In this document: piece by piece, positions 12,839-40,083 of the stretch | Layout of the letters: every line of letters begins with the position of its first letter | How positions within the stretch are numbered: the stretch's first letter is position 1 | Assembly: GCA_030054835.1 (NCBI GenBank) | Contig: JASGVS010000010.1 | Location: 10,276 to 74,275, forward strand | Direction of reading: 5' to 3' | Source of the DNA: Bacillota bacterium | Lineage (GTDB): Bacteria; Bacillota; Limnochordia; Darwinibacteriales; Darwinibacteriaceae | Length of the DNA: 64,000 nucleotides | Notes under the pieces: model-generated | Seen by the model: the letters and a program-made list of their open reading frames with translations, nothing else | The model's database searches: none | What the model was told of the DNA's origin: nothing | Position numbers and translations under genes: made by a program

Positions 12839-13126
12839 TTAGGAGCCCTCCCTTCTGCGGCTGAACATCTTGAGCATACGGTGCGTAACCAGAAAACCGG
12901 CCACAACATTGATAGTAGCCAGCACAATGGCTAAAAAACCCAGAATTGCACTGCCCGTTGTGACGGCAGCAGCGGTTGAAACTAACGCCCCTAGAACGGT
13001 AATGCCGGATAGGGCGTTCATTCCGGACATTAACGGGGTATGGAGCAGGCTGGGCACATCACTGATCAGTTTGTAACCGAGTAATCCCGCCCCTGCAAAC
13101 GCCAGGACTAGAATCAACTCTCTCAT
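12839..13126 (-). CDS. NAD(P) transhydrogenase alpha subunit part 2 (membrane domain)
   Basis: 95 aa with three transmembrane helices; sits between pntAA and pntB as in split-alpha transhydrogenases. Confidence 0.8.
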   Translation of the reverse strand: MRELILVLAFAGAGLLGYKLISDVPSLLHTPLMSGMNALSGITVLGALVSTAAAVTTGSAILGFLAIVLATINVVAGFLVTHRMLKMFSRRREGS

Positions 13127-14310: not shown

Positions 14311-14414
14311 GCTGTGCCTCCGTTCGTGTAATCTAGTATATTTACCTTTCGCAGAAAAGTACGAAATTCCTTGTGACTATAACAACTTTTTAACACTTTG
14401 TGAACGAATGCACA

Positions 14415-14459
14415 AAGAAAAAAGAACCTTACTGCCCTTTTTCGCAATAGGGCGGTAAG
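14415..14459 (-). terminator. rho-independent terminator downstream of the DAP-dehydrogenase gene
   Basis: 11-bp stem CTTACTGCCCT/AGGGCGGTAAG with one wobble or mismatch, followed on the minus strand by a TTCTTTTTTCTTT tract. Confidence 0.45.
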
Positions 14460-14482
14460 ATTCTTTGGAATTCGGGATTCTG

Positions 14483-15385
14483 TTAAACTAAGCGTTTGAT
14501 CAATTCACTGGGATGGCCGGGAAAATAATCTAGTAACGGAATCTCCAGCAGCGTGTAAGCACCGGGCTGTTGTTTCACACTAGCCCTAGCCGCCGAGACC
14601 ATTACTTGGGCAGTCAGGGCGGGATTATTGATCCGCATTTCCCACTTGAGCAGCTGATTGGCCGCCTGGCCCGATGTGCCTTTGCGCTCAATTATTACAC
14701 CGTGACCCACATCCTTCAACGCCTCCACCGAGCCCACTGGGTAGACGTGGGTTTCATCGCGGCTGAAGTAAGGATCCGCCTTGATCTGAGCAGCAATCTC
14801 GTCCTGCTCCGCACCCTCCGCCAACTCCACATACACCATGCGGCGATGCACACCGGAGCCAGTGGGGATAGTCATGGACAGGGCATCCCTCACGCCTGGA
14901 ATGGCTTTTGCAGCCACAGAATGGCCCAGACTCATCCCGGGACCGAAGTTGGTGAAGGTCAAACCCTTGGGTGCCATCAGTTCCATGAGCGCCCGCACCA
15001 TGGAATCTGTGCCCGGATCCCAACCGGCTGAGATAACTGCCACTGCTCCAGAGCTCCTGGCTGCCTCAGCCAGTTTATCACGATGATTAAGCAGTTCCTC
15101 CCCGTGAATGTCGAAGGAGTCCACTGTGTTGATCCCCTGCTTAAGACACTCTACCGCATACTCACCCACCATGCGAGTGGGCAGACTGAGCACTGCCACA
15201 TCTACGCTGTCCAATTCTGTTAGGCTCTGCACCACTGGTACGCCTACCAGTTCACTGGGGACCTCCTTTTGGGCAGAACGGACAACGCCTGCTAACTCTA
15301 GATCAGAAGCGGCCTTAATGGCCTCCACAGCCGCCCGGCCCACATTACCGTAGCCCACAACTGCAACTTTGATTTTCTTCTCCAT
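14483..15385 (-). CDS. ddh: meso-diaminopimelate D-dehydrogenase-like NAD(P) oxidoreductase
   Basis: N-terminus KIKVAVVGYGNVGRAAVEAI, the dinucleotide-binding motif typical of Ddh; about 300 aa; start taken at the second Met (MEKKIKVAVVG). Confidence 0.55.
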   Translation of the reverse strand: MEKKIKVAVVGYGNVGRAAVEAIKAASDLELAGVVRSAQKEVPSELVGVPVVQSLTELDSVDVAVLSLPTRMVGEYAVECLKQGINTVDSFDIHGEELLNHRDKLAEAARSSGAVAVISAGWDPGTDSMVRALMELMAPKGLTFTNFGPGMSLGHSVAAKAIPGVRDALSMTIPTGSGVHRRMVYVELAEGAEQDEIAAQIKADPYFSRDETHVYPVGSVEALKDVGHGVIIERKGTSGQAANQLLKWEMRINNPALTAQVMVSAARASVKQQPGAYTLLEIPLLDYFPGHPSELIKRLV

Positions 15386-15443
15386 CTCTTCACCCGATTT
15401 CAACGGAACAGACTGTGCTGTCCCTTGGTTTCATATGCTGATC

Positions 15444-17348
15444 TTAATCTACTGCTCCAGCAGCCGCTGCCTCCAATGCAGCAGGTTCCTGTTCGTTAGT
15501 AACCAGCTGGAAGCGGGGCAAAAACTGCTGAATGAACTTAACGGTAGCAGCCTGATCCCGCGGCATTATTTGCCCCGGAGCGCTATCGAACATAGTCAAC
15601 ACCTGCTCCAACAGCCCATCGTTTAGGGCAGTTGGCTTAGCCACGAAAATGCGTTCATGGGTTGTGGCAGTGACGCCCTCTTCCGCCGTGAGCAGTTCTT
15701 CAAACAGTTTCTCACCGGGGCGCATACCCACGATTTTAATGTCAATATCCCGGTAGGGCTCGTAGCCGGAAAGACAGATGAGCGTTCTGGCCAGATCCAA
15801 AATCCTGACGGGCTCACCCATATCTAACACAAACACTTCGCCGCCACCGGCTAAAGCGCCAGCCTGGATGATAAGCTGAACCGCTTCGGGAATGGTCATG
15901 AAATAGCGGATCATGTCCTTATGGGTTACAGTAACAGGGCCGCCAGCTAGGATCTGCTTGCGGAAAAGGGGAATCACGCTGCCCCTGCTGCCCAGAACGT
16001 TACCGAAACGAACCGCTGCGTAGTTGGTGGAACTGATGGTATCAAGGTGCTGGATTATCATTTCCGCAATACGTTTCGAAGCTCCCATCACACTTGTGGG
16101 GTTCACTGCCTTATCGGTGGAAACTAACACGAACCTGTCCGCCCCGTAGCGATGGGCGGCCCAGGCCACCGAGTATGTACCGTAAACGTTAGTCTTGATT
16201 GCCTCTTCCGGATTCGCTTCCATCAAGGGCACGTGCTTGTGGGCAGCGGCATGGAAGACCACGTTGGGCTGGTACTCGGCAAACACCTTGTCCACTGCAC
16301 TTTGATCCCGAATATCCTTAACCAACGGGATCACCTTCACATCACTACGCTCTGCTAGCTCCAGCTCAATATCGTACACGCTGTTTTCACAGTTGTCCAT
16401 AATTAAAAGGAGCCTGGGCTTGAAATCAACCACCTGTCGGCAGAGCTCTGAACCAATTGAGCCACCGCCGCCCGTAACCAAGACAACCCTGTCAGTCAGA
16501 TAGGCGCTGATGCCTTCCAGGTCTGCCTTGACGGGATCCCGGCCTAAAAGGTCCTGCAGCTCAATCTCCCGGATATTCTGCACTGTCACATTACCATCGA
16601 TCAGGTCATACACACCGGGCAGGATTTTTATCTTCTTACCGGTAGGTTGGCTCAACTCCACAATCCGGCGGATTGTCTTCCGGTCAACCGACGGCATGGA
16701 GATTACTATCTCATCCACCTGGTGCGTTTCCACAAGGGTCGAGATCTGTTCTGTACCGCCTAAAACAGGATAGCCAAAGACATGTTTGTTCTGCTTAACC
16801 GGATCATCGTCCACAAAGCCCACTACCCGAAAATCGTTGGCGTAGTGGTTGCGAAACTCCCGGGCAACCAAGACCCCGCCATCGCCTGCACCAACAATTA
16901 AGACCCGCTTGGCAGGCTCGCCGTTGGGCAGACTGGTCGGGCGAGAATAGAAAACGCGCCAGGCAAAGCGAGTGCCGCCAAAAAAGAAAATCTGCAGACA
17001 CCACACTAGGGCAAGCAGGCCCCTGGGTGGCAGTAAGTCAAAGGCTAGGCGGAGAATGAGTACGTTTGCTATACAACCCACGGTCGCAGAACTAACGATA
17101 GCAACAACCTCGTCGATGGATGCGTAGCGCCAAGCCCGTCTGTAAAGACCGAAAAAATAATTGCTCAAAAGCCAGACAGCGGTGATGGGAATCATGATGG
17201 CCCAGTACCGGGCCCAGTCGGAAATCAGGAACGCCTCAAAATACATGAAAAGGGAAATGATAACTGCGGCGTTCGCAAGCAGCGCATCGAAAAAAAGAAC
17301 AAGGCCTTGTTTTCCTAATCGATACATGACGATACCTCCATCGTTCAT
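15444..17348 (-). CDS. polysaccharide biosynthesis protein CapD/PglF-type membrane-anchored NDP-sugar 4,6-dehydratase
   Basis: 634 aa; N-terminal transmembrane helices, two Rossmann regions (VLIVGAGDGG; VLVTGGGGSIGSEL) and the YxxxK of the SDR-extended family. Confidence 0.8.
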   Translation of the reverse strand: MNDGGIVMYRLGKQGLVLFFDALLANAAVIISLFMYFEAFLISDWARYWAIMIPITAVWLLSNYFFGLYRRAWRYASIDEVVAIVSSATVGCIANVLILRLAFDLLPPRGLLALVWCLQIFFFGGTRFAWRVFYSRPTSLPNGEPAKRVLIVGAGDGGVLVAREFRNHYANDFRVVGFVDDDPVKQNKHVFGYPVLGGTEQISTLVETHQVDEIVISMPSVDRKTIRRIVELSQPTGKKIKILPGVYDLIDGNVTVQNIREIELQDLLGRDPVKADLEGISAYLTDRVVLVTGGGGSIGSELCRQVVDFKPRLLLIMDNCENSVYDIELELAERSDVKVIPLVKDIRDQSAVDKVFAEYQPNVVFHAAAHKHVPLMEANPEEAIKTNVYGTYSVAWAAHRYGADRFVLVSTDKAVNPTSVMGASKRIAEMIIQHLDTISSTNYAAVRFGNVLGSRGSVIPLFRKQILAGGPVTVTHKDMIRYFMTIPEAVQLIIQAGALAGGGEVFVLDMGEPVRILDLARTLICLSGYEPYRDIDIKIVGMRPGEKLFEELLTAEEGVTATTHERIFVAKPTALNDGLLEQVLTMFDSAPGQIMPRDQAATVKFIQQFLPRFQLVTNEQEPAALEAAAAGAVD

Positions 17349-17402
17349 TCACTTCATGTAGATAATTCTAGATAATTTCAAAAATCCCTGTCGTTGGTGT
17401 GG

Positions 17403-18731
17403 TCAAACCTTGCAGCTATCCGTGCGGGGATCGTGCCAGATCACCAAACCAAACTCGGTGTTTTCCCTTTCGCGCTGGTAGTGACTCTCCCCTTCTTTCA
17501 AGCATTGGGGGCACACGTGCCAGGGAATAAGCACTGCCGCACTGGGAGTGGGATGCACGTTGGAAACGGTGTAAATCACTCGCCAGCCTGCACAGCTGGG
17601 GCAGAGGCGAATGTACTCTTGCTGCTGCTCGTAAATGTTGTCCGTATCGTAGTGGATATGCCTCCTGCGCTCAAAGAAATCTTGCCTACCGAAGATTTCC
17701 TCCAGATCAGCCTCGCTGCGTCTTTCCCATAAAGACAACACCTCTGCACAGATCTGGGCTACCTGGGCTGTCAGGGAAGCACTTTGGCTCACTGTCTGCC
17801 GCTGCCAAGTGGGCTCTTGCACTTTAGAGTAATCAAGACCTGCCAGGGCCAACAGCAGCCCCAAGTTCACATAGGGCAGGGCGCTTTCGATGGAATAGCC
17901 CCCCTCCAGCACCACAATGTCCGGTGCCAACAGCTCTGTTAAGCGGGCGTAACCCTGGGCACTGAAGTTCATGTTGGTTAAGGGATCGGAATAGTGGTTG
18001 TCCTGACCCGCGGCGTTAACGATGTAATCGGGCTGCCAATCCTGCAAAATGGGCAGCACCACTCTCTCCATGGCCATGAGCATCCCCTCATCGCCTGTGC
18101 CAGGGGGTAGGGGAATATTCACTGTTTGACCATAGGCTGCGGGGCCGCCCCGTTCTGACAGGAAGCCGGTACCAGGATAAAGGGTTCTGCCGTCTTGGTG
18201 CAGGGAAATATGGAGCACCCCGGGGTCGTTGTAGAAAATATCCTGGGTGCCGTCGCCGTGGTGGGCGTCCGTATCCACTATGGCCACCTTTAAATCGGGT
18301 CCCAAGCGGTGGCGGAGATGATCCACCATGATCGCTTCATTGTTTATGGTGCAGAAACCTCTACTCCCGTGGACAACTCGGTTAGCATGGTGGCCCGGCG
18401 GTCTAAGCAGGGCAAAGGAACGGCCAACTAAGCCATCAACAACCAAATCCGCCGCCAAAATGGTTCCGCCAGCCGCAATGCGGTGGGACTCGGTTACGTG
18501 TTTTGCCAGACTGGGTACGAAAATATGTGTGCGGAGAATCTCTTCATCTTCCGCTAAGCGCGGCCTAAACTCCTTAATGGCCGGATGGTCAAAGAGGCCT
18601 TCCTCTTGAATCTGATCCCGTGTGTAAAGTAGGCGTTCCTGCCGTTCCGGATGGGTAGGTGAAATTGCCCAGTCAAAGGCAGGGAAAAAGACCAGCCCCA
18701 CGCTGGGTTTGTTCTCAGCCATTGCCTCCAC
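17403..18731 (-). CDS. histone-deacetylase-family (arginase/deacetylase fold) amidohydrolase with a Cys-rich C-terminal zinc-ribbon-like tail
   Basis: HHGDGTQDIFY and the DxH metal-binding pattern of the HDAC/AcuC family; C-terminal CPSCAGW...CPQC. Confidence 0.75.
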   Translation of the reverse strand: MEAMAENKPSVGLVFFPAFDWAISPTHPERQERLLYTRDQIQEEGLFDHPAIKEFRPRLAEDEEILRTHIFVPSLAKHVTESHRIAAGGTILAADLVVDGLVGRSFALLRPPGHHANRVVHGSRGFCTINNEAIMVDHLRHRLGPDLKVAIVDTDAHHGDGTQDIFYNDPGVLHISLHQDGRTLYPGTGFLSERGGPAAYGQTVNIPLPPGTGDEGMLMAMERVVLPILQDWQPDYIVNAAGQDNHYSDPLTNMNFSAQGYARLTELLAPDIVVLEGGYSIESALPYVNLGLLLALAGLDYSKVQEPTWQRQTVSQSASLTAQVAQICAEVLSLWERRSEADLEEIFGRQDFFERRRHIHYDTDNIYEQQQEYIRLCPSCAGWRVIYTVSNVHPTPSAAVLIPWHVCPQCLKEGESHYQRERENTEFGLVIWHDPRTDSCKV

Positions 18732-20403
18732 CCCTTATCCTCCGTACTCCCGGCCGCAGCTGGGTGCGGATCATATGGATCCTCCCTACAGTGCGAAAAC
18801 CCCTAACCAGGGGGAAACTTTCCTCTTCCACTATGTAAACTTCCTGCTCGGAGGAATAACCTGCCTGGACTGCGAGTTCTCTCAGTTTTTCCTCAGCCAT
18901 TTGTCTTGCCTGATGGAGATCAAACGATATGGGACTTGCGAGTTTCTCCCTGACACCCAGCTCCGGAATTGTGACAATGCCCAGTTCGGTGTCGGCGTGG
19001 AGGGTCAAGCTAAGGGTTGTCCGAGCAGCGGCTGCACCTACCGCATTGGCACCTGCCGCGAAGGGCACAATCTCCCACTCCAATCCAAGTATCCCTCCCA
19101 ACCTCGGAATGAACACTTCGGCAGGCGCACCAAGGCCCACCACCGCTTCCGGCCGTACCTTAGGCGGCATTAAGATCTCTGACACAGTGTACAGCGGCAC
19201 GTTCTCCAGCCCTGAATAGAGATCTTCAATCGCTTCAGCAAGCTGGGCTGTAAAAGCGTCTATCACCTTTTGGGCAAGTTCCTGCCAGGTGAGGCCCAGC
19301 CCCTCTGCCCAGATGTGCCAGGCGTTTACCGCCCGCTCCTTCTCCCCGATTTCCGCCATACCTAGAGCCACTGCCGCATCGGTTGGCGTCAGCTTTTCAC
19401 CGCCCAAGCACACGGGGGTACCAGCTCGCTGCGGGCCAATGTGGAACGTTCCCCTTTCCCGATCGTAGTTGAGTTCGCTGTCACCGCCCAGACCCACTGA
19501 GCGGGTGAGTAGGGCGGGCACTAATGTTTTGTTACCGGCGATGGTTGCCCCATCCCTGGCAAAGAGCACTTTCCCCTCCACAACGGCAGCCAAGTCCGTT
19601 GTGGTGCCGCCGATATCAACAATAACGTAATTGGGTTTGGCGCAGCTGGTTAAGGCCTGTACACCCATAATGCTGGCAGCGGGCCCCGAGAGTATGGTTT
19701 CAACGGGCCGCTCCTCTGAGTCGGCCAAAGTCATGGTGCCCCCATCCGCCTTGAGAATCACAATCTCCTCCAGCGGCACAGGCAGCTGCTCCCGCAGCCT
19801 CCGCCACATGACAGTAAATTCCAGCTGCTGTTTGGCCACGCTGGAATTTAAGTAGGCGGTTACGATACGTCTAGGGAAATTGGCCCGGCCTGCCAAACGG
19901 TGGCCACAGCTGATAACACCCGAAAACCACTGGGACAGTGCTGTTGCAACCTGCTGCTCGTGGCTGGGGTTGCGGTGAGAAAATTTGCCTACCACGGCGA
20001 GAGCTCTACAGTCTTTGGGAATTCTCGCCTTGAGTTCCTCAATCTCGCCGGCATCCAGCGGGCTTACCTCCCGCCCCCGGTGATCGATGTAACCGTCCAG
20101 CTCAATGAGGGGAAAGGGAAACTGGTAACTGGCCAAATTAACCCCGGGTCCGGGAATGGCCACCACCACGGTGGGTACGCCCTTCCCCTCCACAATCAAG
20201 TTGGTGGAAAGGGTGGTGGATAAATGGAGCCGGAGCGGCTCTTGACCTTGGCAGTGCCTTAGCACCTCCTCCAAGGCGGTACTGGTGCTGGCAAAGAGGT
20301 CAGCGTGCCTAGTTGGCGTTTTGGCCATAGCCACAACCTCATCGCCTTTGATTAAGGCCGCATCCGTATTGGTTCCCCCCACATCGATGCCGATGATGTA
20401 CAA
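18715..20403 (-). CDS. hydantoinase/oxoprolinase-N-terminal-like ASKHA-fold protein
   Basis: N-terminal IIGIDVGGTNTDAAL and a second DIGGTTTD phosphate-binding motif, typical of hydantoinase A-like ATPases; 562 aa. Confidence 0.55.
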   Translation of the reverse strand: MYIIGIDVGGTNTDAALIKGDEVVAMAKTPTRHADLFASTSTALEEVLRHCQGQEPLRLHLSTTLSTNLIVEGKGVPTVVVAIPGPGVNLASYQFPFPLIELDGYIDHRGREVSPLDAGEIEELKARIPKDCRALAVVGKFSHRNPSHEQQVATALSQWFSGVISCGHRLAGRANFPRRIVTAYLNSSVAKQQLEFTVMWRRLREQLPVPLEEIVILKADGGTMTLADSEERPVETILSGPAASIMGVQALTSCAKPNYVIVDIGGTTTDLAAVVEGKVLFARDGATIAGNKTLVPALLTRSVGLGGDSELNYDRERGTFHIGPQRAGTPVCLGGEKLTPTDAAVALGMAEIGEKERAVNAWHIWAEGLGLTWQELAQKVIDAFTAQLAEAIEDLYSGLENVPLYTVSEILMPPKVRPEAVVGLGAPAEVFIPRLGGILGLEWEIVPFAAGANAVGAAAARTTLSLTLHADTELGIVTIPELGVREKLASPISFDLHQARQMAEEKLRELAVQAGYSSEQEVYIVEEESFPLVRGFRTVGRIHMIRTQLRPGVRRIRGGGNG

Positions 20404-24021: not shown

Positions 24022-24603
24022 ATGTCATTTACTTTACAACTAGGCAGTAAAGCAATTGATTTCAATCTTCCGGCCACGGATGGCAAAACCTACAGTCTGA
24101 AGGACTTCGCCGAATATCCGTATCTGGTAGTGTTCTTTACCTGCAACCATTGTCCGTATGTAGTGAACTCGGACGAGATCACCCGGGCAACGGCAGAGAA
24201 GTTTGCAGACAAGGGCGTCCGCTTTGTGGCCATTAACTCCAACAGCGCTAACACCTATGCAGAAGACTCCTTCGAAAACATGGTCAAGCGCATGGATGAG
24301 CAGAAGTTCCCCTGGGTCTATCTCCACGATGAGAGCCAGGATGTGGCCCGGGCCTACGGCGCTCTGCGCACACCCCACTTCTTCGTATTCAACCAGGAGC
24401 GCAAGCTCGTTTACACCGGTCGCGGCGTTGACAGCCCCCGCCAGCCGGAAAACATCACTGTGAACGATCTGGAAAACGCCCTGACCGAACTGACCGAGGG
24501 CAAGGAGATCACCACACCGCTCACCAACCCTGTCGGCTGCAACGTCAAATGGGACGGCAAACCGCCCCACTGGATGCCGGCGGAGGCCTGCGATCTGGTT
24601 TAG
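24022..24603 (+). CDS. thioredoxin-fold redoxin (AhpC/TSA / thiol-disulfide oxidoreductase family)
   Basis: FTCNHCPY CxxC active site in a redoxin context, 193 aa. Confidence 0.7.
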
Positions 24604-25691
24604 CCCAGATTGTCATAGAGAAAATCCAGCACATCTTTGGCCGTGGGAGGACAACCGGGTACATGCCGGGAAAAGCCCCTGGTGCAGCTGCCTGCACCAA
24701 GCCCATCCTGCTTAACACCCTTAAACCCTTGGCCAATGGCAACTTTTTGGGTCAGCTGTTGCAGCTGGCCCTTTTCATTTAGCCGGGCCAAGGCGTGGAT
24801 CAGACTGCCGAAACAAGCAGAGCAGGCATCCCGCTCGTCAATGTGTTTGGCTAAGTGTTCCACCGAACGGCTAGGCTCAATGCGTTTGGTAGTATGGCTG
24901 TCGTTAATTACCCTCACCGTTGTCTTTTCACTGTACAGCTCCCCTACTCCAAGCTCAGCGGCGAGGGTTATGTACGGGACATCTTCCACCCCATAGCCCA
25001 GCAGGGCTGCCACATAAGAATCCACCAGAACCGGGTCGGTACCCACTATCACCCGATCCATCTGCACTGGGTTACCCCCCTCCTCAAAGTCCAAATCGCC
25101 AATAAAACCGTCCACAACCACTAAGTTGGTGTGTATCGCTTTATTCAGGGCCGCTATGGGCGTATGGAGCCCCAAAGTATGAAAACGGCGTTTTTCCCGA
25201 TCCGGGATGCACCCTTTCAGGTTCTTCAGGGCGCAGGTGATTCTGGTTTGACAGTGACCCTTTAAAACGGGCAGATTGATCAGGTAGTCAATCCTAGACA
25301 TTTCATCGCAGACCAGCAGTTCCAAATCCTCCACCCTGCGCGTGTGATAGCTATCCCGCTGCAGGTCCACCAACTCCACCCCGTAACGCTCCGCAAGATC
25401 AGTATAACCGCAGGCGCGAAAGGCTCGGGCTGTGCTGTCCCCGATCCAAGATCCCTCTGCTATTACCAGATCCCTAAACCCGTGATCTAACAGGTATTCT
25501 AAGACACCAGCCACCAAATCGGGTGAGGTGGTTGCCCCTTCCCAGGCAGGGCGGGCAACTACTAAGTTAGGCTTCAGACCAACGCGGGAGCCGGCGGGAA
25601 CTCCCTCCGCCAGTTTGATTGTATCCAGGATTTCCTTAACCATCTCCCGGGGCCTTTGGCCATAGCTGATTAGTAGTTCGTTTCTTAGCAT
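24600..25691 (-). CDS. DUF362-domain protein (putative Fe-S binding)
   Basis: N-terminal GLKPNLV motif of DUF362; C-terminal Cys clusters CSACFG...CTRGF...GCPP. Confidence 0.55.
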
Positions 25692-26776: not shown

Positions 26777-27796
26777 TTAGAGAGCGAGCAGCTTGAGCTT
26801 TTCACTTAACACGTCGGCAGGGATAGTCTTCTTCACCCCGATCACATCGGCTAAAGGCTGAGACTTAATCTCTTTACCTGCTAAGCCAACCATTTCACCG
26901 GTTCTGCCCGCTAAGGCCAGGTCAACCGCCTTATTGGCAAAGCCGGCAGCCAGTTCCACGTCAGCCGGTACAGGGGTACCACCCCGCATTAAGTAACCTA
27001 ATACCTGAACCCGCGGCGAGCGGCCGGTGGCCTTCTTGTACTCGGCAGCCACACCGTGGCTGACACCTTCGTAGGCAATGTTGCCGAAGGCGTCCCGGGC
27101 AGCGGTGGAGCGGTCAAAGCTCTCCAGTTCAATACCTTCTGCCACAACCGCCAAGGCAGCTTTGCCCGTGCGGCGCTTGTAGTTCTGCATCGCTTCGATC
27201 ATTTCATCCAAATCCATCCGGCCTTCCGGCACCATGACGGCGCAGGCAGGTGTGTTGATGGCAATGGCCAAAGCGAGCCAACCCGCATCCCTACCCATTG
27301 CTTCCACAATCATATCCCGGTCATGGGCGATGTTGCTGTTCACAGTAGCGTTAACCGCATCGGCAGACATTTTCACAGCGGTGGCATAACCCAGACTGCG
27401 CTCAGTACCCCGCAGGTCATCGTCGATGGTTTGGGGAACGCCAATCACGGTTAGACCTTGCTTAGCCAACTCGTTAGCAACACCGAGGGTATCGTCGCCG
27501 CCCATGGCGATTAACACATCCACACCCCTGTCTTCCAGGGTAGCCAAAACGTCATTGGTTTTGCCTTCTTTAATTGGGTTGCGGCGGGCCGTACCCAAGA
27601 GAGTTCCCGGTGTGAAGCGCTGGGCTTCGAGCTGATTGTGATCGAGCTCCCGGGCCTTATTTAGTATTAAACCTTCCCAGCTGTTTTCAAAGCCGATAAG
27701 GTTGTGGCCTTCCCTATACAAGCGCTGAGCTAGAAAATAGAGAAAGTCGTTGATTCCTGCAGAGTCTCCTCCTCCAGTTAAAACTCCAAATCTCAC
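26777..27796 (-). CDS. pfkA: 6-phosphofructokinase (GTG start after the GGGAGGGG RBS)
   Basis: VRFGVLTGGGDSAGIN, MGGDDT, PQTIDDD; PFK family. The GGDDT aspartate hints at PPi-type specificity, but the second specificity position is Gln. Confidence 0.85.
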   Translation of the reverse strand: MRFGVLTGGGDSAGINDFLYFLAQRLYREGHNLIGFENSWEGLILNKARELDHNQLEAQRFTPGTLLGTARRNPIKEGKTNDVLATLEDRGVDVLIAMGGDDTLGVANELAKQGLTVIGVPQTIDDDLRGTERSLGYATAVKMSADAVNATVNSNIAHDRDMIVEAMGRDAGWLALAIAINTPACAVMVPEGRMDLDEMIEAMQNYKRRTGKAALAVVAEGIELESFDRSTAARDAFGNIAYEGVSHGVAAEYKKATGRSPRVQVLGYLMRGGTPVPADVELAAGFANKAVDLALAGRTGEMVGLAGKEIKSQPLADVIGVKKTIPADVLSEKLKLLAL

Positions 27797-27859
27797 ATGA
27801 ACCCCTCCCAACAAGTAATGTGATTATTTTCTGCAGAGGCTGGCAAAATCCTCTTGTTC

Positions 27860-28771
27860 TTAAGACTGAACGAGCCTTAAACCTAAAGAACTGGCAAACT
27901 CCAAGGCCTCGTTGTATTCATCCCTCGTCAACCTACGTCCCAATTCAGGAAACTGAAAGGCGCGGAAGTGGGGATAATACTGGTCCATCAGATTGACCAA
28001 GCAATCGGCAGAAAGATTGTCGTTGATAAATCGCAGCACCTTTTTTGTATCGGCCAATCCTCCGGGCAGCATCAGATGCCTGATCAGAAGGCCCCGCACT
28101 GCGATGCCCCGCCCATCAGTCTTAAGTCCCCCAACCTGCCGATCCATCTCAAGCAGTGCTTCCTTGGCCTTTTGGGGGTAATCCTCAGCCCCAGAGTATT
28201 TTTCCGCCCGCTCCGGTTCGGCGTATTTGAAATCGGGCATGTAGATGTCTATTATTCCATCTAAGAGTTCTAAGGTGGCTGGGTTTTCGTAGCCGCCGCA
28301 GTTGTATACCAGCGGCAGGCGAAAGCCCCGCTCCACCGCATAGAGCAGCCCCGCCAAAATGCTGGGTACAAAATGGGTGGGGCTGACCAAATTCACGTTT
28401 GGGCAGCCATGGCCCTTCTGCAGCTCCAGCATAATTTCCCCCAGCTCCGACCCACTTACCGCTCTACCCCTACCGCCCAAGCTGATCTCGCTGTTTTGGC
28501 AGTACACACAGGCTAAAGTGCAGTGGGCAAAGAAGATGGTGCCCGAGCCCCGGCTGCCCACTAACACCCTTTCTTCCCCGTAGTGGGGACCAAAGCTGGA
28601 CACAACCGCCTGCTCCGGTGCGCGGCAGACGCCCGCCTTTGTGCTGCGGTCAATACCGCAGCGGTGCGGGCATAAGCTGCACTCCTCGTATACTTCCAAC
28701 GCCCATTCTACCCTTGCCGCCAGTTCACCCCGGCGGTAGAGTTCAAGATAGGCCGGCAGCAAAACCCTCAC
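27860..28771 (-). CDS. radical SAM enzyme of the AmmeMemoRadiSam (AmrS-like) type
   Basis: CSLCPHRCGI...G.C N-terminal motif, CTLACVYCQNSEIS (CxxxCxxC followed by QN-EIS), about 300 aa. Confidence 0.6.
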   Translation of the reverse strand: MRVLLPAYLELYRRGELAARVEWALEVYEECSLCPHRCGIDRSTKAGVCRAPEQAVVSSFGPHYGEERVLVGSRGSGTIFFAHCTLACVYCQNSEISLGGRGRAVSGSELGEIMLELQKGHGCPNVNLVSPTHFVPSILAGLLYAVERGFRLPLVYNCGGYENPATLELLDGIIDIYMPDFKYAEPERAEKYSGAEDYPQKAKEALLEMDRQVGGLKTDGRGIAVRGLLIRHLMLPGGLADTKKVLRFINDNLSADCLVNLMDQYYPHFRAFQFPELGRRLTRDEYNEALEFASSLGLRLVQS

Positions 28772-30630
28772 CTACCCTGCTTTAGGGCGTATTCCGCATG
28801 GGCCAGGTTGCCCAGGGCCGTTTCAATCCTAGACTCAATTCCCAGCCGCTTACCCCCTTTGTCAACTACCACAACGCCGCCCCGCTCCAGCTTGGTGGAC
28901 CAGCCTCTGGCATGGCGATAAAGCTCAGCTTGGTTCCACAGGTATGGTACAGGTAAAAAGCCACTCACAAAGATCTTAAAGAAGCCTTCGGCGCTGTACG
29001 GCTCAGAAATGTGGGTTTCGATGGCCTCAATTACCCGGCGGGCATCTTGCCTTAGCCTGGCCGCCCTTTCCTGCACTTCCAGATTTGTACTCAAATCATC
29101 GACTATACCTTTTCGCCGCAGCTCCCGGTATTTTCTTAAAGAATAGGCAGTGATGCGAACACTTTCGTCAATCACCTCGGGCGTTGCCAGATCGCGCCCC
29201 TCGGAATAGCTCACCACATGGATCAGGGGTGGGCTCTGCTCATTGCGGGGGTCAATGTCATCCATTAGTGCTGTCACGGCAGCGAGCTGGGCTTTGGCCT
29301 TGTCTTGATCTGGGCTGAAGTAATCCAGTCCCGCCCTGGGTTGGAGCAGCACCTGAAACTTCTCGTCTTCCAGTGACTTAACCAGGCTCAACAGAGCTCG
29401 GGATTTAGCCAAGTCCTGCAGACCCCAGGTCTGCCTGGGCGTATTCAGCATGTTCTGAAGCACAAAGGTGCGGATGCCCATTTTCTTAGCCAGCTTGGCT
29501 GCTAAATAAGCGGAAACGATGTATGTTACATCATCGGCCCCCCGGAAGGCAAAGTGATGGGATACGTTGGCCTCCAAGGGTTTTTGCGTCTGGACGATGT
29601 AGCGGACCGTATCCACATGCTGGCGCAGGTTTTCCAAAAGGCCGTAGGGCCCCCTGCCGTCCAGTTGATTGAACCACCAAAAGGAAAGGGCATGCCAGCA
29701 AATATTGATCGTCTCCTCGTGAATAGCGGCCAAGTGGGGCACATTCTTGGTCCCCGCATAGGTCCTAAGGAGCAGGGGTCTGGACTGGGCCCAAACCTGC
29801 TCATAATCAGCTGCGGAGTTGATGGGTACTCCCCCTCCGTTTGGCTTTTCTCCCCACTCTTCTCCGAAATTGGACTGGGTGAGCTGGGATGTGCCGATGG
29901 AGAGGATGTCCAAAAAGCCGGTATGGGCAAGCTGCTTAACCCAGGTTAAAAAGTCCTCCACTGTGGTATAGGGTCCGGCATGGGCTCGCATTAGGGGCCG
30001 GGTAATGTCTGCCCTGGCAGCGAGCCTCTTCTCCACCGTATCCTGCTTGGTACCAAATTCGCTGTACTGCTTGATAACCGCGGGAGTACGTTCTTCCTTC
30101 AGGTACGCCTCAGAAGCGATGAGCTCTTCCCCAAAGGCCAAGCGATCCCCATCGTATTTCTGCCCACTTCTAATCTCCGCGGGAATCTTTTCCTCTGGGA
30201 CTTCGAACTTTTTGAGCGTTTCGGCCGGCGTTTCGCCGCCCTCAAATGTCTTCACCAAACCGTGGTAGGCCTGGTCAATCCTGCGGCAGGCTTCTGGCAG
30301 CCCGGCGAAATAAAAGGCGCGAAGGGGTCCCCCTTGGTGAGCAAGGAGCTTGTTGTTAAGCAGCTCATGCAAAAGGTAACCTACCATATCAACCGCCTGG
30401 TTCACGTCGAGCCTATAGCTCACGCCCAGGCGGGTGATATTCTCTGCCTTTATCCAATCTATTATCCTGCGGCGCTGGGCCTGGTATTTCACATTATCCA
30501 AGGCCTCGGCCAGCTCGGCCGAGCCGAAGACAACTTCGTAGCCGCAGTCTTTGAGCAGCTCCGCCAGGGAGTTGATACCCAGGGTGTGGGCATCAACTGC
30601 TGGCTTGAGCAAACCAACTCGTTCCATCAT
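28768..30630 (-). CDS. B12-binding-domain protein (N-terminal DxHxxG Rossmann) fused to a roughly 480-aa domain of unknown function
   Basis: N-terminus VGLLKPAVDAHTLGINSLAELLKDCGYEVV matches the cobalamin-binding DxHxxG...GxxxxxG pattern; 4-nt overlap with the rSAM gene. Confidence 0.55.
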   Translation of the reverse strand: MMERVGLLKPAVDAHTLGINSLAELLKDCGYEVVFGSAELAEALDNVKYQAQRRRIIDWIKAENITRLGVSYRLDVNQAVDMVGYLLHELLNNKLLAHQGGPLRAFYFAGLPEACRRIDQAYHGLVKTFEGGETPAETLKKFEVPEEKIPAEIRSGQKYDGDRLAFGEELIASEAYLKEERTPAVIKQYSEFGTKQDTVEKRLAARADITRPLMRAHAGPYTTVEDFLTWVKQLAHTGFLDILSIGTSQLTQSNFGEEWGEKPNGGGVPINSAADYEQVWAQSRPLLLRTYAGTKNVPHLAAIHEETINICWHALSFWWFNQLDGRGPYGLLENLRQHVDTVRYIVQTQKPLEANVSHHFAFRGADDVTYIVSAYLAAKLAKKMGIRTFVLQNMLNTPRQTWGLQDLAKSRALLSLVKSLEDEKFQVLLQPRAGLDYFSPDQDKAKAQLAAVTALMDDIDPRNEQSPPLIHVVSYSEGRDLATPEVIDESVRITAYSLRKYRELRRKGIVDDLSTNLEVQERAARLRQDARRVIEAIETHISEPYSAEGFFKIFVSGFLPVPYLWNQAELYRHARGWSTKLERGGVVVVDKGGKRLGIESRIETALGNLAHAEYALKQGR

Positions 30631-31690
30631 TTCCCTGCGCTCCTTTCCGCCTGAACAAGATGTGGAAATCGTACACCTTACGCCCTTCCGCTCGGAAGTC
30701 CCGCTCCATAATGCTTGAGGCCAGGTCGATGATTAACCCCGTTTCCCGCATGGGCAGGCCAAGGGCATGACCCACACCTTCTAAGGGAACCAAACCAAAG
30801 GGTACATCCTCTAGGATATAACGATGTTCGAGGCGGGAAGGGGCTTCAATCGTCCGATAGGCCTTGTTCTGCTGAATGGCATCAAAGAGCGTGCTCCCCT
30901 TCAAACCGTAGCTGCGGTTCAGCCAGTCCTTGGTAGCTTCTAACTCCCAGCCCAGCCCCTCGGCTACCTGCAGCCGTTCGCCGTCGATTTTCTCCAAAAG
31001 CCGCCCCACAGACGGGGTGATGCCGTCGTAATAGTACTTGTAGGTGCTGTGGACATTCTCGGTCCAGCCTGCGTTGAGCAGAAGCGGGGCGCAGTGCAGG
31101 ATCATCCCCACATTCCCGATGGATGTTTCCACCATAGACCGGGCAGGCTTGAGATGGGCCCGCAGACAGCGGGGCATGCGGGCAATGATGCTGCGATTCT
31201 CGGCGGGATTGAAGGTGGAAAGGAGCACCTCCGTTTTGAGGGCCACCACGTTCACCGCATCGGGGGCTGTTTTTCGGCAGGTGTAGATAATCGTTTGGGT
31301 CTCCGCAATTGTCTGCGGGTACTCTTGGTTAAACTGTTCGTACACTTCCTTGAATTCCAGGGCACCAAAGGTACGACCCGGATTGAGCACTATCAAGGTG
31401 GATCTTTTGATGTACCTGCCGATCAGTTCAGCCAATTCCCTGTGGGCGGTGGCCGGTGTTGTAATCAGAATCAAATCGGGATCGCTCACCGCTACCTCAA
31501 TATCTGCCGTTACGGCATGAATGGTGCAGCTCCCTTCAATTACACCTTCACAATGGATTGTCTTTGTTTCCAGTAATTCTTTGATCGTCTCTTCTGAGCG
31601 GTTCCAGAGAGTTACGCTATGCCCCTCCATGCTTAGATGGGCGGCCGTAGCTAACCCTGAATTGCCCGCTCCCATCACAGTGATGTTCAT
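30593..31690 (-). CDS. opine/octopine-dehydrogenase-like NAD(P)-binding oxidoreductase
   Basis: MNITVMGAGNSGLATAAHL Rossmann N-terminus; roughly 365 aa with the two-domain pattern of the opine DH / G3P-DH-like family; GAGGTGG RBS 6 nt before the chosen ATG. Confidence 0.5.
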   Translation of the reverse strand: MNITVMGAGNSGLATAAHLSMEGHSVTLWNRSEETIKELLETKTIHCEGVIEGSCTIHAVTADIEVAVSDPDLILITTPATAHRELAELIGRYIKRSTLIVLNPGRTFGALEFKEVYEQFNQEYPQTIAETQTIIYTCRKTAPDAVNVVALKTEVLLSTFNPAENRSIIARMPRCLRAHLKPARSMVETSIGNVGMILHCAPLLLNAGWTENVHSTYKYYYDGITPSVGRLLEKIDGERLQVAEGLGWELEATKDWLNRSYGLKGSTLFDAIQQNKAYRTIEAPSRLEHRYILEDVPFGLVPLEGVGHALGLPMRETGLIIDLASSIMERDFRAEGRKVYDFHILFRRKGAQGNDGTSWFAQASS

Positions 31691-31755: not shown

Positions 31756-31786
31756 AAAAAAACCCCACCTTACAGACAAGATGGGG
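31756..31786 (-). terminator. intrinsic terminator / attenuator hairpin inside the leader, 66 nt upstream of the opine-DH-like start
   Basis: Minus-strand stem CCCCATCTT/AAGGTGGGG (8 of 9 bp) followed by a 7-nt U-tract. Confidence 0.4.
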
Positions 31787-34784: not shown

Positions 34785-36002
34785 CTATACATCCACCGCT
34801 GCGCCCGCTTCACGTTCTCCCGGACTTTCTAGCGTACTCTCCTGCCAAAAAGCAATCCGGTTTTTCCCTTCCCCTTTGGCAAGGTAGAGGGCCTTATCAA
34901 CCGAGGAGAGGTAGTTCTTAGTCTCCTCAACAGTCTCCAAGGGCGCCACCCCAAAACTGGCCGTGATCTGTACCTGACATCCTTCCACATTGAACACGTG
35001 GTCCCCAACCTGGCTGCGCAAACGATCGGCCAGGCTGACAGCTTCACTGAGGGGTGTGTCCGGAACCAGCAGGATAAACTCCTCCCCGCCTAGGCGGACT
35101 AAAATGTCGCTGCCGCGCATCGACTTCTGCAGCAGTTTGGCCATTTCACACAAAACCCCGTCCCCCACTGGGTGGCCGTAGGTGTCATTGACCCGCTTGA
35201 AGTCGTCAATGTCGAACATGATCAGGCAGGATTGGCGGCCGTTGCGGCCCATCCGCTTCAATTCAGCCTGCACAACCAAATCTAAGAACCTGCGGTTAGG
35301 CAGCCCGGTTAAGGGATCTTGGTACGCCATTTTCTCCAGTATAGCCTGCTGGGATTCGATCTGTTCCCGCTGCTGTTCTGTGAGGCGGAAGTTACGCCAG
35401 TTGATCAGGGAGAGGGAAAAGCCCAAAGAAACGGCTAAGATGCCATTACTAAGACTGACTGAAAGGGCGCTCAGGGGTAGTTCGCTTAAGTGGATCAGGC
35501 TGAAGTAATAGATCAGGCCGAAACTGAAAAAGACGACCACAGCGCGGGAAGGGCGAAGGTAATAGAAGGTGCCCACGATGGTGGAAACAAGCAGGATGGG
35601 TGTTACTGAAATAAGCATCCTTTGGTCGATCACCGCTTTTACGATGCCAAAAAGTAAAAGGGCCCCTACAACCGCATATTGAAACACAACGAGGGAACGG
35701 TCACTTGCTGGCCGTTTGCGCAATTTAGCAGCAATGACCCAACCGACTAAGGAGCCTATACCGCCAAGGGCGTTAACCACCATGGTCTGGCGGCGCCAGT
35801 CCGCCAAGACAGGCGAAGCGGCCTCCAGTGTCAGGGCGTGGAAAGCCCCAACCCCAAACAAGGTCAGGGTCATAATGGGCGCGGTCCAATAAATCCGCTG
35901 TACATTGACCATACGCGCCTTTTCTGAAATTGCGGTATTCATCCCGATCCAAGTAGTAAGCCTACTGTGGACCAGACGAAATCTCGCCCTGATACGCCGC
36001 AC
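34785..36002 (-). CDS. diguanylate cyclase (GGDEF) with an N-terminal multi-TM sensor domain
   Basis: RLGGEEFILLV active-site motif (GGEEF), RFLDLVVQAELKR, six or seven N-terminal transmembrane segments. Confidence 0.8.
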   Translation of the reverse strand: MRRIRARFRLVHSRLTTWIGMNTAISEKARMVNVQRIYWTAPIMTLTLFGVGAFHALTLEAASPVLADWRRQTMVVNALGGIGSLVGWVIAAKLRKRPASDRSLVVFQYAVVGALLLFGIVKAVIDQRMLISVTPILLVSTIVGTFYYLRPSRAVVVFFSFGLIYYFSLIHLSELPLSALSVSLSNGILAVSLGFSLSLINWRNFRLTEQQREQIESQQAILEKMAYQDPLTGLPNRRFLDLVVQAELKRMGRNGRQSCLIMFDIDDFKRVNDTYGHPVGDGVLCEMAKLLQKSMRGSDILVRLGGEEFILLVPDTPLSEAVSLADRLRSQVGDHVFNVEGCQVQITASFGVAPLETVEETKNYLSSVDKALYLAKGEGKNRIAFWQESTLESPGEREAGAAVDV

Positions 36003-37930: not shown

Positions 37931-37958
37931 TCTCTTAACCTAGACTGGGTCCCACTTA

Positions 37959-39821
37959 CTAGACGGAACCCCAGCTGAAGTATTCTTCACTCCACTTCCC
38001 GTCGTCAAATCTGAAGATAACGTTTTTCCGCAGTTCCCGGATGGTCATCTTGGCGTGTCCGATTTGAATCCTGACCCCGGGATAGAAGGTTTCGGCTGCA
38101 ATAAAGCCGCCTTCATCCACAGCCAAGGAAGTGCGCACCGTTTCGTTCAAACCGGCATAGCGGACCGCAATGGATGAACCGGCGAAATAGCGGCCGTTGC
38201 GGCATGAACCGGCAATTCTGATCCTCTGCCCAGCAGACATACGGCAGGCGTACACGAGTAGTCCATTGACGATAATATCGCCTGTTGCCTCCAGTTCGGC
38301 GTTTTGGGCGTAACTTAACTTAATGTCCGCCGGGGCACTCAACACATCCTCCAGGAAGGCTACTACCTTGCTCAGTGCCTTCTCACTGGTCTGCACCTCT
38401 CGAATGGACTGAATGCGCAGCGGGTTTGCTCCCTGATAGCGCCTGGCGATGTGGTGCAGTATATTCCAAATTCGATCCTGCTCCCTGTCTAATTCGAGTT
38501 CCTCAGTTCTGGGCAGCAGTTCTAGCACGTCCGCAAACAACTCAGGAATGGAGGGGAGTTTAGTTTCTAATACCGCCTTGATCAGGTGCCCGTCGCCGCT
38601 GCCGTTTTGTTCCTCCCCTGCAAAACCCGTGTGGGTTTTGATCTGCAGCGTCAAGGTCTGGAGCTGCCTCAAAAGGGGAATGATCCTCTTGAGCAAGGCC
38701 GCCATTTTGATGGTGACAATCATGTCGCCCCCAGCCGACACCCTACCGCCAATGACGTTACGGCGAACATCCACACTGCTCCCAGCCCGGATGTCCGCGT
38801 GGTAGGAATTGTGGCCGATGGTAACAAGCCCACCCGCCTTAACCTCCAAACCCTCCCGCACACTACCCATCACCAACACATCGCCAGTGAAATCAATGTT
38901 ACCGGTGGCAATATCCACGTCGGAGTCGATCACAAGTTCAGGCTTGACACAGATCTGTCCCCATTCGATGGTGGGCCGTCCCGCTATCTCCGCTACCGCA
39001 ATGGTACCGTCTTCAACCAGTTTGACACCGCGTCCGGCCGTAAAGCGTGCCCATTTTGGCTGTCTGGGGTCAACCCGTTCTCCAAACACGTTCCAGCCTG
39101 GCTTGCCCTCCACCGGGGGATGCCAAAACGCCAAAACTTCGCCCGGTTCAACACAATCTATCTTTCCCCGGTCGAACCAATCGACGCGGTCGCCCTGTTC
39201 CTCCCTTACCCGGATACCGGTTAGGTCATGGAACGCTTCAATTCTACCATCTACGGGCGGTTCGGGCTTAATTCCCCGCACAATCAAAACACGACTGTTC
39301 TCACCGCTCTGGCAGGCGCTTTCCAGCGTTTCCGCATCCGCCCCCATCTTCACGCCCATTTTCTCCAGCTCGTCCAACACCCGCTGGGGATCGATGGGTT
39401 TCGGGGCATGCCTCCGTTTTTCCCGGGAAACAACCACCAGGTCGGGAACGTAATCGCTGTCCGCAACCCTGTATTCTATTCCCTCTTCGAATTCTGTTTC
39501 GAGCCAAACCTCCATTTTGTCCGACGATACTCCCAGTCGGAACTCACTTTTGGCAGGTCGATGGAAAAGCCTAAACGCTATCCCTTGAGTGGTCTCTAAC
39601 ACCAGAGGTTGTTCCACCATTTTGCCATGGTAAAGGACCTGAACATGGCGATCAGGTCCGGTGACAATAGTGGGCCATTTCCCGCCTCGGCTCGGCTTTT
39701 TCATCAGGAGTTTCCCGTCCAGAAGAGCCAAGCAACCGTCCTCTGTCTCAGGCATCTCGACTTGATCTTTCTCGCCAATTTTCAACTCATCAAGCCACTC
39801 CAACATGGACTCAATGTTCAA
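37959..39821 (-). CDS. FapA/DUF342-family protein (polymer-forming, beta-helix-rich)
   Basis: 620 aa; N-terminal domain then repetitive GxxV/I beta-helix-like repeats (VDIATGNIDFTGDVLVMGSV...), typical of DUF342. Confidence 0.65.
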   Translation of the reverse strand: MNIESMLEWLDELKIGEKDQVEMPETEDGCLALLDGKLLMKKPSRGGKWPTIVTGPDRHVQVLYHGKMVEQPLVLETTQGIAFRLFHRPAKSEFRLGVSSDKMEVWLETEFEEGIEYRVADSDYVPDLVVVSREKRRHAPKPIDPQRVLDELEKMGVKMGADAETLESACQSGENSRVLIVRGIKPEPPVDGRIEAFHDLTGIRVREEQGDRVDWFDRGKIDCVEPGEVLAFWHPPVEGKPGWNVFGERVDPRQPKWARFTAGRGVKLVEDGTIAVAEIAGRPTIEWGQICVKPELVIDSDVDIATGNIDFTGDVLVMGSVREGLEVKAGGLVTIGHNSYHADIRAGSSVDVRRNVIGGRVSAGGDMIVTIKMAALLKRIIPLLRQLQTLTLQIKTHTGFAGEEQNGSGDGHLIKAVLETKLPSIPELFADVLELLPRTEELELDREQDRIWNILHHIARRYQGANPLRIQSIREVQTSEKALSKVVAFLEDVLSAPADIKLSYAQNAELEATGDIIVNGLLVYACRMSAGQRIRIAGSCRNGRYFAGSSIAVRYAGLNETVRTSLAVDEGGFIAAETFYPGVRIQIGHAKMTIRELRKNVIFRFDDGKWSEEYFSWGSV

Positions 39822-40083
39822 TGGAAAGACCTCCTAAAGCAAAAAAACTTTTCACCCAGGCGCGATGAAAAGTACTTTTGCGCAACTGGCTGGCATGCAC
39901 GTGCTGTGGTTAGCCCCTTTAGCTTTGCGTCCCAGGGTTTCCCCTGGTTTGCCAAATTTTTAATTGTAACCGCTCTCTTTAACAAGTAGTTTAGTATAGC
40001 ATACTTACCATTTTTTGCAAGCGTTGTCAAACGAAAAAATTAAATTTCGTCGATCCGTCTCAAATCCCTTTGCCAACGGGATT

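Follow-up and report, generated by a model that had tools for sequence, protein, structure and literature searches.

A probable two-gene module of an opine dehydrogenase and a fused, glutamate-mutase-like B12 protein in a Limnochordia bacterium

We analysed a 64,000-nucleotide (nt) stretch of DNA (hereafter, the window) from an uncultured Bacillota bacterium placed by GTDB in the Limnochordia, family Darwinibacteriaceae (GenBank assembly GCA_030054835.1, contig JASGVS010000010.1, positions 10,276 to 74,275 of the forward strand). Three overlapping open reading frames (ORFs) occupy positions 27860–31690 on the minus strand. An original prediction, made before any database search, had read them as an operon of an opine-dehydrogenase-like oxidoreductase, a B12-binding protein and a radical SAM enzyme of the AmmeMemoRadiSam (AmrS) type, and the ORF coordinates agree with its claim of three overlapping genes on one strand. 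The first gene (30593–31690) encodes a 365-amino-acid (aa) protein of the opine dehydrogenase family from an ATG at 31690, with a GAGGTGG ribosome-binding site just 5′ of it, and is the conserved partner of the second. The second (28768–30630), which we refer to as the mutase gene, encodes a fused 620-aa protein in which a GlmS-like B12 domain is followed by a GlmE-like TIM barrel. The third (27860–28771) encodes a 303-aa, PflA-like (PflX/COG1313-type) radical SAM protein. The dehydrogenase and mutase genes overlap by 38 nt, and the stop of the mutase gene overlaps the start of the radical SAM gene by 4 nt (GTGA). Close homologues of all three proteins are numerous, and each also occurs as exact copies in anaerobic-digester and biogas metagenomes and in Limnochordia and Bacillota metagenome-assembled genomes; thus the three ORFs are real genes rather than chance reading frames.

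By its sequence, the 365-aa protein is a genuine member of the NAD(P)-dependent opine dehydrogenase family, whose enzymes form or cleave secondary amines. Its match to Pfam Octopine_DH (PF02317; E = 1.5e-43, 148.8 bits against a cut-off of 30) bears out the first assignment of the original prediction, and its N-terminal NAD(P)-binding Rossmann domain matched NAD_Gly3P_dh_N (E = 6.9e-12). The nearest solved structure is that of Arthrobacter N-(1-D-carboxyethyl)-L-norvaline dehydrogenase (CENDH; PDB 1BG6), which aligned with residues 4–339 (E = 4.4e-68). In this alignment, H199, R290 and D295 stand opposite H202, R292 and D297 of 1BG6, which we take to be the proposed catalytic residues of CENDH. 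The dehydrogenase is about as near to Arthrobacter CENDH as members of the family come. It differs from CENDH, from the octopine and nopaline synthases and from staphylopine-type enzymes in its coupling to a B12 mutase, which has not been described for any of them.

The 620-aa protein carries, by profile and by model, a B12-binding domain at approximately residues 1–130 (30241–30630, minus strand), with no cap domain in front of it. The cobalamin-ligand motif DxHxxG reads DAHTLG (D13, H15 and G18; 30577–30594, minus strand) and begins at residue 13, nearly where E. coli GlmS has it. All three motif residues are invariant in 38 close homologues; across a diverse set of 43 relatives, conservation of H15 and G18 is still 90% or higher. 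For the SxL part of the B12 fingerprint, S71 and L74 stand opposite the S..L of the corrinoid protein 4jgi. The window protein itself stays below the cut-off of Pfam B12-binding (PF02310; E = 7.9e-4, 19.7 bits, cut-off 32.1), but 32 of the 43 relatives matched this family (best E = 1.1e-10). A profile of the whole family matched the solved B12-binding domains 4jgi (E = 3e-5), 2yxb (1.3e-4) and 4r3u_C (2.8e-3); the weaker matches included HcmB, MetH, IcmF and GlmS, and a domain of 2-hydroxyisobutyryl-CoA mutase was among those found. An alternating strand-helix pattern in residues 1–130 of an AlphaFold model is consistent with a Rossmann-like domain. Relatives, family profile and model thus all uphold the B12-binding domain that had been proposed from the motif, and the profile check suggested at that time found the fold at the level of the family.

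What follows this domain had been described as lacking any recognisable motif. A direct sequence search of the 620-aa protein against the PDB indeed returned only noise, and the protein matched no NCBIfam model. Its family is nonetheless large and tightly conserved: it yielded 2,863 matches among the scored candidates and comprises 434 clusters at 50% identity, and relatives are encoded in at least 469 matched stretches among GTDB species genomes. The AlphaFold (AF2) model, built on 38 homologues (pLDDT, the predicted local confidence score, 85; predicted TM score, pTM, 0.88), has three parts: the strand-helix domain, a barrel and a C-terminal region. The barrel, at approximately residues 205–480 (29191–30018, minus strand), is a (β/α)8 TIM barrel with strands at 213–217, 242–245, 287–291, 310–315, 352–354, 388–395, 425–433 and 469–471, and is the putative chamber for the substrate and the adenosyl group. 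Its invariant or near-invariant residues are R215, D241, Y291, D324, R326, E353, D367, K409, R432, H471 and E477. In the model, residues 481–620 (28771–29190, minus strand) form a helical and small β region, which hhalign aligned with GlmE residues ~330–440.

The closest folds to this model in the PDB belong to B12-dependent isomerases. Foldseek placed glutamate mutase epsilon chains at ranks 1 and 2 (6h9e_B and 1cb7_B; E = 1e-9, probability 1.00, TM score 0.62–0.64 on the target), lysine 5,6-aminomutase alpha chains at ranks 3–5 (E = 2e-8 to 1e-7), IcmF from rank 6 onward (E = 2e-5 or weaker) and generic TIM barrels from rank 11 onward (E = 1e-4 or worse). The relatives point the same way. 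Among relatives 26–38% identical to the window protein, seven of 43 matched Pfam Met_asp_mut_E (PF06368; best E = 1e-6), and three distant relatives are fused to a C-terminal MutL domain; in the glutamate mutase cluster of E. coli O157, MutL/GlmL is encoded between glmS and glmE. One relative has a C-terminal ATP-grasp domain instead. When the family profile was compared with a GlmE alignment, hhalign aligned 200 columns (probability 78%, E = 1.8e-5) covering barrel strands 6–8 and the C-terminal region, with the near-invariant E477 opposite GlmE E329; against a single GlmE sequence the probability was 31%. A QPRAG resemblance between the family and GlmE falls on different strands and was not used. 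From the model, Foldseek, hhalign and the Pfam matches of the relatives, we conclude that the C-terminal part is a predicted GlmE-like TIM barrel, so that the large region without a motif has a likely identity after all. We further conclude that the 620-aa protein is a putative single-chain enzyme of the adenosylcobalamin isomerase class, resembling GlmS and GlmE combined, and we infer adenosylcobalamin as its cofactor form. By sequence it is homologous to the Met_asp_mut_E family but is not a member of it.

The enzyme nearest in design is glutamate mutase (GlmS/GlmE, or MutS/MutE; 1CB7 of C. cochlearium and glmS-glmL-glmE of E. coli O157). Both have a B12 domain with DxHxxG near residues 13–18, and both have a GlmE-like TIM barrel and C-terminal region, GlmE being the best fold match. 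In contrast to glutamate mutase, the 620-aa protein joins both subunits in one chain, with the B12 domain first, and its locus has an opine dehydrogenase as partner rather than nearby genes for GlmL/MutL, methylaspartase or mesaconase: methylaspartate ammonia-lyase and glmL/mutL genes were absent within 10 kb in the window and did not recur in 83 related loci. Lysine 5,6-aminomutase (KamD/KamE) and D-ornithine 4,5-aminomutase, the second-best fold matches, also combine a TIM barrel with a B12-binding domain, but they match less well than GlmE in fold and profile, their domain order differs, and no lysine that would bind pyridoxal phosphate (PLP) was identified in the 620-aa protein. Both aminomutases are followed in their pathways by an NAD(P) dehydrogenase. 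No nicotinate-pathway genes, the context of 2-methyleneglutarate mutase (Mgm) in Eubacterium barkeri, were seen in the neighbourhoods. The substrate of the 620-aa protein need not be glutamate.

Conservation of the neighbouring genes was assessed in 80 species-level loci encoding relatives of the 620-aa protein; their ORFs were searched with the window proteins, and counts refer to loci with enough flanking DNA. In 58 of 74 loci, an opine dehydrogenase gene lies on the same strand directly upstream of the mutase gene, most often overlapping it or no more than 80 nt away, and a more distant dehydrogenase is adjacent in another arrangement in a further three. Even where the 620-aa protein is only 41% identical to that of the window, the dehydrogenase gene still overlaps the start of the mutase gene, and a metagenomic protein fragment (P0277) joins the C-terminus of an opine dehydrogenase in frame to a B12 mutase. 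In contrast, only 3 of 71 loci have the radical SAM gene directly downstream of the mutase gene, namely the window and two others (L007 and L011), with a truncated fourth case (L019); the mutases of these three relatives are 59–77% identical to that of the window. Thus the conserved unit is the translationally coupled pair of dehydrogenase and mutase, and not the trio, whose conservation in related genomes the original prediction had made its test.

When all ORFs of the 83 loci were clustered, no neighbour other than the dehydrogenase was frequent; no other cluster exceeded 17 loci, a figure reached by a generic ABC ATPase. Some less frequent neighbours bear on the possible use of the product. 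Divergent ATP-grasp genes resembling D-Ala-D-Ala ligase (Ddl) occur in nine loci (154–188 bits, for a subfamily cut-off of 243), other ATP-grasp genes lie beside the pair in two (L005 and L091), and in one (L082) an AsnB-like amidoligase gene stands between dehydrogenase and mutase. Several loci contain surface-polysaccharide genes (DegT, Wzx, Wzy, Wzz, glycosyltransferases and an acyltransferase). In three loci without a dehydrogenase (L010, L014 and L022; Tissierellia / Clostridium sp.), genes for a polar-amino-acid ABC transporter (SBP_bac_3, permease and ATPase) directly follow the mutase gene.

Some further features of the family were recorded in passing. The P0277 fusion has lost the aspartate of DxHxxG, its motif reading CVHVAG. 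The distant relatives P0223, P0265, P0246 and P0193 are fused either to a full MutL/GlmL domain (826–1266 aa) or to an ATP-grasp domain of the glutathione-synthetase/RimK type (863 aa); we know of no description of such architectures. Several loci related to L010, L014 and L022 have a DUF6483 gene directly upstream. In L075, L077 and L080 (Mageeibacillus-like, Bacillota), the pair is followed on the same strand by genes for a flavin amine oxidoreductase (PF01593) and a large DUF2298 membrane protein.

The 303-aa product of the third gene is, by motif and model, a true radical SAM enzyme with a PflA-like fold, in agreement with the class that had been assigned to it. It scored 30.1 bits against Pfam Radical_SAM (PF04055; cut-off 29.5). 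Its [4Fe-4S] motif CX3CX2C reads CTLACVYC (C84, C88 and C91; 28499–28522, minus strand), is invariant in 24 homologues and is followed by QN, as in the activase-like group. The best Foldseek match of its model was the pyruvate formate lyase activating enzyme PflA (3c8f; E = 3.7e-10, TM score 0.75 on the target). The narrower label did not hold: the protein reached 14.2 bits against the AmrS model of NCBIfam (TIGR04337; cut-off 220, E = 0.014), and we therefore reject AmrS identity. It likewise differs from PflA, its best fold match, in scoring 10.6 bits against NCBIfam PFLA (cut-off 232); all activase and AmrS models are far below their cut-offs, and homologues of the protein stand alone. The Pfam families of AMMECR1 and MEMO1 were absent within 10 kb on either side and beside three homologues in other genomes, and no glycyl-radical enzyme gene was seen within 10 kb. 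An extra N-terminal segment with four cysteines (C31, C34, C38 and C49; 28625–28681, minus strand), CSLCPHRCGIDRSTKAGVC, has low pLDDT in the model; all four are invariant among homologues and may form an auxiliary metal site. This Cys-rich segment is probably what prompted the AmrS label.

The radical SAM family has at least 7,971 matches; JGI/IMG and some NCBI records label the protein 'putative pyruvate formate lyase activating enzyme'. In three other genomes, homologues 59–60% identical to the radical SAM protein of the window are found by themselves among unrelated genes. [Clostridium] ultunense strain Esp is one of the three; in the mutase locus recovered from a second strain of this species, DSM 10521 (L020), a radical SAM gene is absent within 8 kb. 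In the window the gene is co-transcribed with the mutase gene, but it is probably a lineage-specific neighbour, found downstream only in this Limnochordia-related lineage. It belongs to a widespread orphan family, lies outside the conserved module and probably takes no part in the chemistry.

The 5′ boundary of the transcription unit is likely a terminator-like hairpin at 31763–31786 (minus strand), a 10-pair stem followed by TTTTTTT, between an upstream prolyl-oligopeptidase gene and the dehydrogenase gene. No terminator-like site was found between the mutase and radical SAM genes, nor between the radical SAM gene and the 6-phosphofructokinase (PFK) gene downstream of it (26777–27814, minus strand; Pfam PFK, E = 2.6e-70). 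The PFK gene is possibly co-transcribed but lies outside the conserved module; in one relative whose mutase is 68% identical (L008), it directly follows the mutase gene (dehydrogenase-mutase-PFK), the radical SAM gene being absent. We reject PFK as a functional link, since its adjacency is confined to three close relatives. No riboswitch or T-box that could name a ligand was found near the operon in the window or in eight related loci.

The pairing of an opine dehydrogenase with a B12 protein is not undescribed, as had been supposed. Zhang, Rodionov, Gelfand and Gladyshev (2009; BMC Genomics 10:78, PMC2667541) predicted a new family of B12-dependent proteins across 11 genomes that was 'always adjacent' to pfam02317 (octopine/nopaline dehydrogenase), with Ddl and Asn synthase nearby. 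Its members had a distant B12-binding domain at the N-terminus, related to COG5012 of MetH and methyltransferases, and a C-terminal part that was left unassigned except for a 'TIM-barrel-like structure' (PMC2667541). The 620-aa family matches this description in every respect checked, and we equate the two by description rather than by sequence comparison. We found no later paper on the family and no other literature on an opine dehydrogenase with glutamate mutase, adenosylcobalamin or cobalamin. The pairing is thus a prediction known since 2009. To it we add the connection of the barrel to GlmE and the adenosylcobalamin isomerases, a distribution over at least 469 species genomes rather than 11, a subset of loci without the dehydrogenase, the fusion proteins, and the finding that the radical SAM gene lies outside the module.

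Taking these observations together, we think it probable, though well short of certain, that the locus holds a two-gene module made up of an opine dehydrogenase and a fused, GlmS- and GlmE-like adenosylcobalamin isomerase. In such a module, cobalamin would be bound base-off/His-on through H15 of DAHTLG, between the B12 domain and the barrel. Binding of the substrate would trigger homolysis of the Co–C bond, and the 5′-deoxyadenosyl radical would take a hydrogen atom from the substrate, a small carboxylate or amino acid held in the barrel; after a 1,2-rearrangement the hydrogen would be handed back. A shift of the carbon skeleton is more likely than a shift of an amino group, because GlmE is the closest relative and no PLP-binding lysine is evident. 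The dehydrogenase would handle the amine on one side of the mutase step. CENDH reductively condenses L-amino acids with pyruvate, and the dehydrogenase would most likely condense the branched amino acid that results from the rearrangement with a 2-oxo acid, such as pyruvate, giving an opine-type imino acid. Alternatively, it could supply the substrate of the mutase, or run in the cleavage direction in catabolism. Those loci without a dehydrogenase that do carry amino-acid transporters suggest a free amino acid as the substrate of the mutase, with the dehydrogenase acting afterwards. In some lineages, the product would probably be passed to ATP-grasp or AsnB-type ligases in cell-envelope and polysaccharide clusters; these ligase and polysaccharide gene contexts suggest that it is attached to envelope polymers there. 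What the analysis shows is the structure of the genes, their family and fold assignments, the conservation of the motifs and the neighbourhood statistics; the kind of rearrangement, which enzyme acts first and what the substrate is are all inferred.

Several results weigh against a two-gene isomerase module. In the B12 domain, the window protein scores below the curated Pfam cut-off (19.7 and 32.1 bits, as given above), and the canonical GG reads AG (A109-G110), of which G110 alone is invariant. The barrel gives no match to Met_asp_mut_E even at E ≤ 1, and the hhalign probability of 78% for GlmE concerns only the C-terminal half of the barrel. For the N-terminal half, which is presumably where GlmE holds its substrate-binding arginines, restricted local and global hhalign runs against GlmE gave probabilities below 1%, so that the substrate class is not assignable from the alignment. 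We take the substrate-binding arginines and active-site glutamate of GlmE to be R66, R100, R149 and E171 (C. cochlearium numbering); the conserved arginines at barrel strand ends of the 620-aa protein are R215, R289 and R432, which may or may not correspond to the GlmE residues. Neither an adenosyltransferase, B12 transport or MutL-type gene nor a cobalamin riboswitch was found near the locus; a hydantoinase-like gene ~8 kb away with a faint MutL match encodes a Hydantoinase_A protein and was discarded as a MutL candidate. Turning to the pair, 13 of 74 loci (Tissierellia / [Clostridium] ultunense group) have no dehydrogenase within 8 kb, so that the mutase can apparently function with no such gene beside it. 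In the lineage of the window, the stop codon of the mutase gene overlaps the radical SAM gene, which stays adjacent in L007, L011 and L019, and a lineage-specific functional link of this gene to the mutase is conceivable.

The original prediction had instead joined all three genes in one pathway, in which the radical SAM enzyme would, for example, activate, repair or methylate with the B12 protein and so modify a small molecule made by the dehydrogenase. The GTGA overlap and the lack of a terminator-like site between the mutase and radical SAM genes favour such a pathway, as do the three relatives with the radical SAM gene directly 3′ of mutases 59–77% identical to ours, and four other loci in which a 36%-identical radical SAM relative lies 3–5 kb off on the opposite strand. 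The low frequency of direct adjacency (3 of 71 loci) argues the other way, along with the dehydrogenase-mutase-PFK order of L008 without a radical SAM gene, and with a radical SAM family of at least 7,971 matches whose 59–60% identical homologues are found alone in three other genomes. In addition, the radical SAM protein is not AmrS, and the B12 protein is built like an adenosylcobalamin isomerase rather than a B12-dependent radical SAM enzyme. Enzymes of the latter kind have both domains in one chain. Adenosylcobalamin isomerases make their own 5′-deoxyadenosyl radical and therefore need no radical SAM partner, so that a B12/radical-SAM modification pathway is neither required nor indicated; we consider it quite unlikely. 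Methylcobalamin chemistry, in which the barrel of the 620-aa protein would serve to activate the donor or acceptor of a methyl group, as in MetH or the MtaB/MtaC systems, is very unlikely. Among solved structures, the N-terminal domain is matched best in sequence by the corrinoid protein of an O-demethylase (4jgi, E = 3e-5), with several MetH chains next, and the TIM barrels of BHMT and MTHFR are among the weaker fold matches; the 2009 paper had also tied the domain to COG5012 of MetH and methyltransferases (PMC2667541). However, the adenosylcobalamin isomerases that head the fold matches lead by 4–5 orders of magnitude in E-value, matches to Met_asp_mut_E and fusions to MutL are found among the relatives, a motif beginning at residue 13 leaves no place for a helical cap before the B12 domain, and neither a methyltransferase partner nor a reductive activase is conserved nearby.

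Two further alternatives stay within the adenosylcobalamin isomerases. If the 620-aa protein were a PLP-assisted aminomutase of the lysine 5,6- or ornithine 4,5-type, the dehydrogenase would then oxidise the new amine, like the 2,4-diaminopentanoate and 3,5-diaminohexanoate dehydrogenases of ornithine and lysine fermentation. The succession of aminomutase and NAD(P) dehydrogenase is well established in Clostridia, Foldseek ranks 3–5 go to lysine 5,6-aminomutase alpha chains, and in three loci that lack the dehydrogenase amino-acid ABC transporter genes adjoin the mutase gene. We nevertheless regard an aminomutase as unlikely: GlmE, from a carbon-skeleton mutase, is the better match in fold and profile, the Pfam matches of the relatives are to Met_asp_mut_E, and the dehydrogenase belongs to the opine (secondary-amine) family rather than to the diamino-acid dehydrogenase families. 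No PLP-binding lysine was identified; K9 is invariant in close homologues only and is not among the positions conserved at 90% or more in the 43 relatives. The protein could also be a fused isozyme of ordinary glutamate mutase, converting L-glutamate to 3-methylaspartate, with the dehydrogenase incidental. GlmE as the closest fold, the GlmS-like motif at the same position and the neighbouring peptidase genes, which would supply glutamate, speak for an isozyme. Yet GlmE could not be aligned with the barrel's substrate-side half, and the window protein fails Met_asp_mut_E, no methylaspartate ammonia-lyase or mesaconase genes lie alongside as they do in the E. coli O157 cluster, and an adjacency of 58 in 74 together with an in-frame fusion is not incidental. 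An ordinary glutamate mutase is therefore improbable.

To our knowledge, only about a dozen adenosylcobalamin-dependent isomerase reactions are known. If the two-gene isomerase module is real, this widespread orphan family, acting on a new substrate, would extend the list by one, and would link B12 radical chemistry to the formation of opine-type imino acids, a combination not described so far. The family spans at least 469 species-level genomes and 434 clusters at 50% identity and dominates anaerobic-digester Bacillota, and its genes are currently annotated only as 'cobalamin-binding protein' or 'hypothetical'. As to what the pair does, we offer a more speculative proposal, to which we give somewhat less than an even chance: it would carry out an uncharacterised adenosylcobalamin isomerase reaction on a substrate unlike those of the known B12 mutases, either with a dicarboxylic amino acid going on to an opine or with an opine-type imino acid as the substrate itself, and the product, an unusual branched amino or imino acid, would be ligated to Bacillota envelope glycans or peptides by Ddl-like, ATP-grasp or AsnB ligases. 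That ligase and polysaccharide genes recur near the pair suggests that Gram-positive cell envelopes may carry a new kind of non-sugar decoration. The window adds no feature that reveals the chemistry of the pair, but enzymological work on the family would be worthwhile; its radical SAM neighbour should not be taken for evidence of a B12/radical-SAM pathway.

Elsewhere in the window, a c-di-GMP-I riboswitch (RF01051; 70 bits, E = 1.1e-11) at 39878–39963 (minus strand) lies directly upstream of a gene for a 620-aa FapA-domain protein (~37958–39820, minus strand), and a GGDEF diguanylate-cyclase-type gene is found near it (34785–36002, minus strand). A DUF362 protein gene at 24600–25691 (minus strand) weakly matches NCBIfam Npun_F2552 (85.8 bits, for a cut-off of 500). 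A run of minus-strand genes at 13123–20403 comprises an alanine dehydrogenase-like gene (13123–14310), a DAPDH-like oxidoreductase gene (14483–15403), a CapD-like Polysacc_synt_2 gene (15444–17348), a histone-deacetylase-family gene (17403–18731) and, at its end, a hydantoinase-A-like gene (18715–20403), whose faint MutL match reflects the Hydantoinase_A fold.

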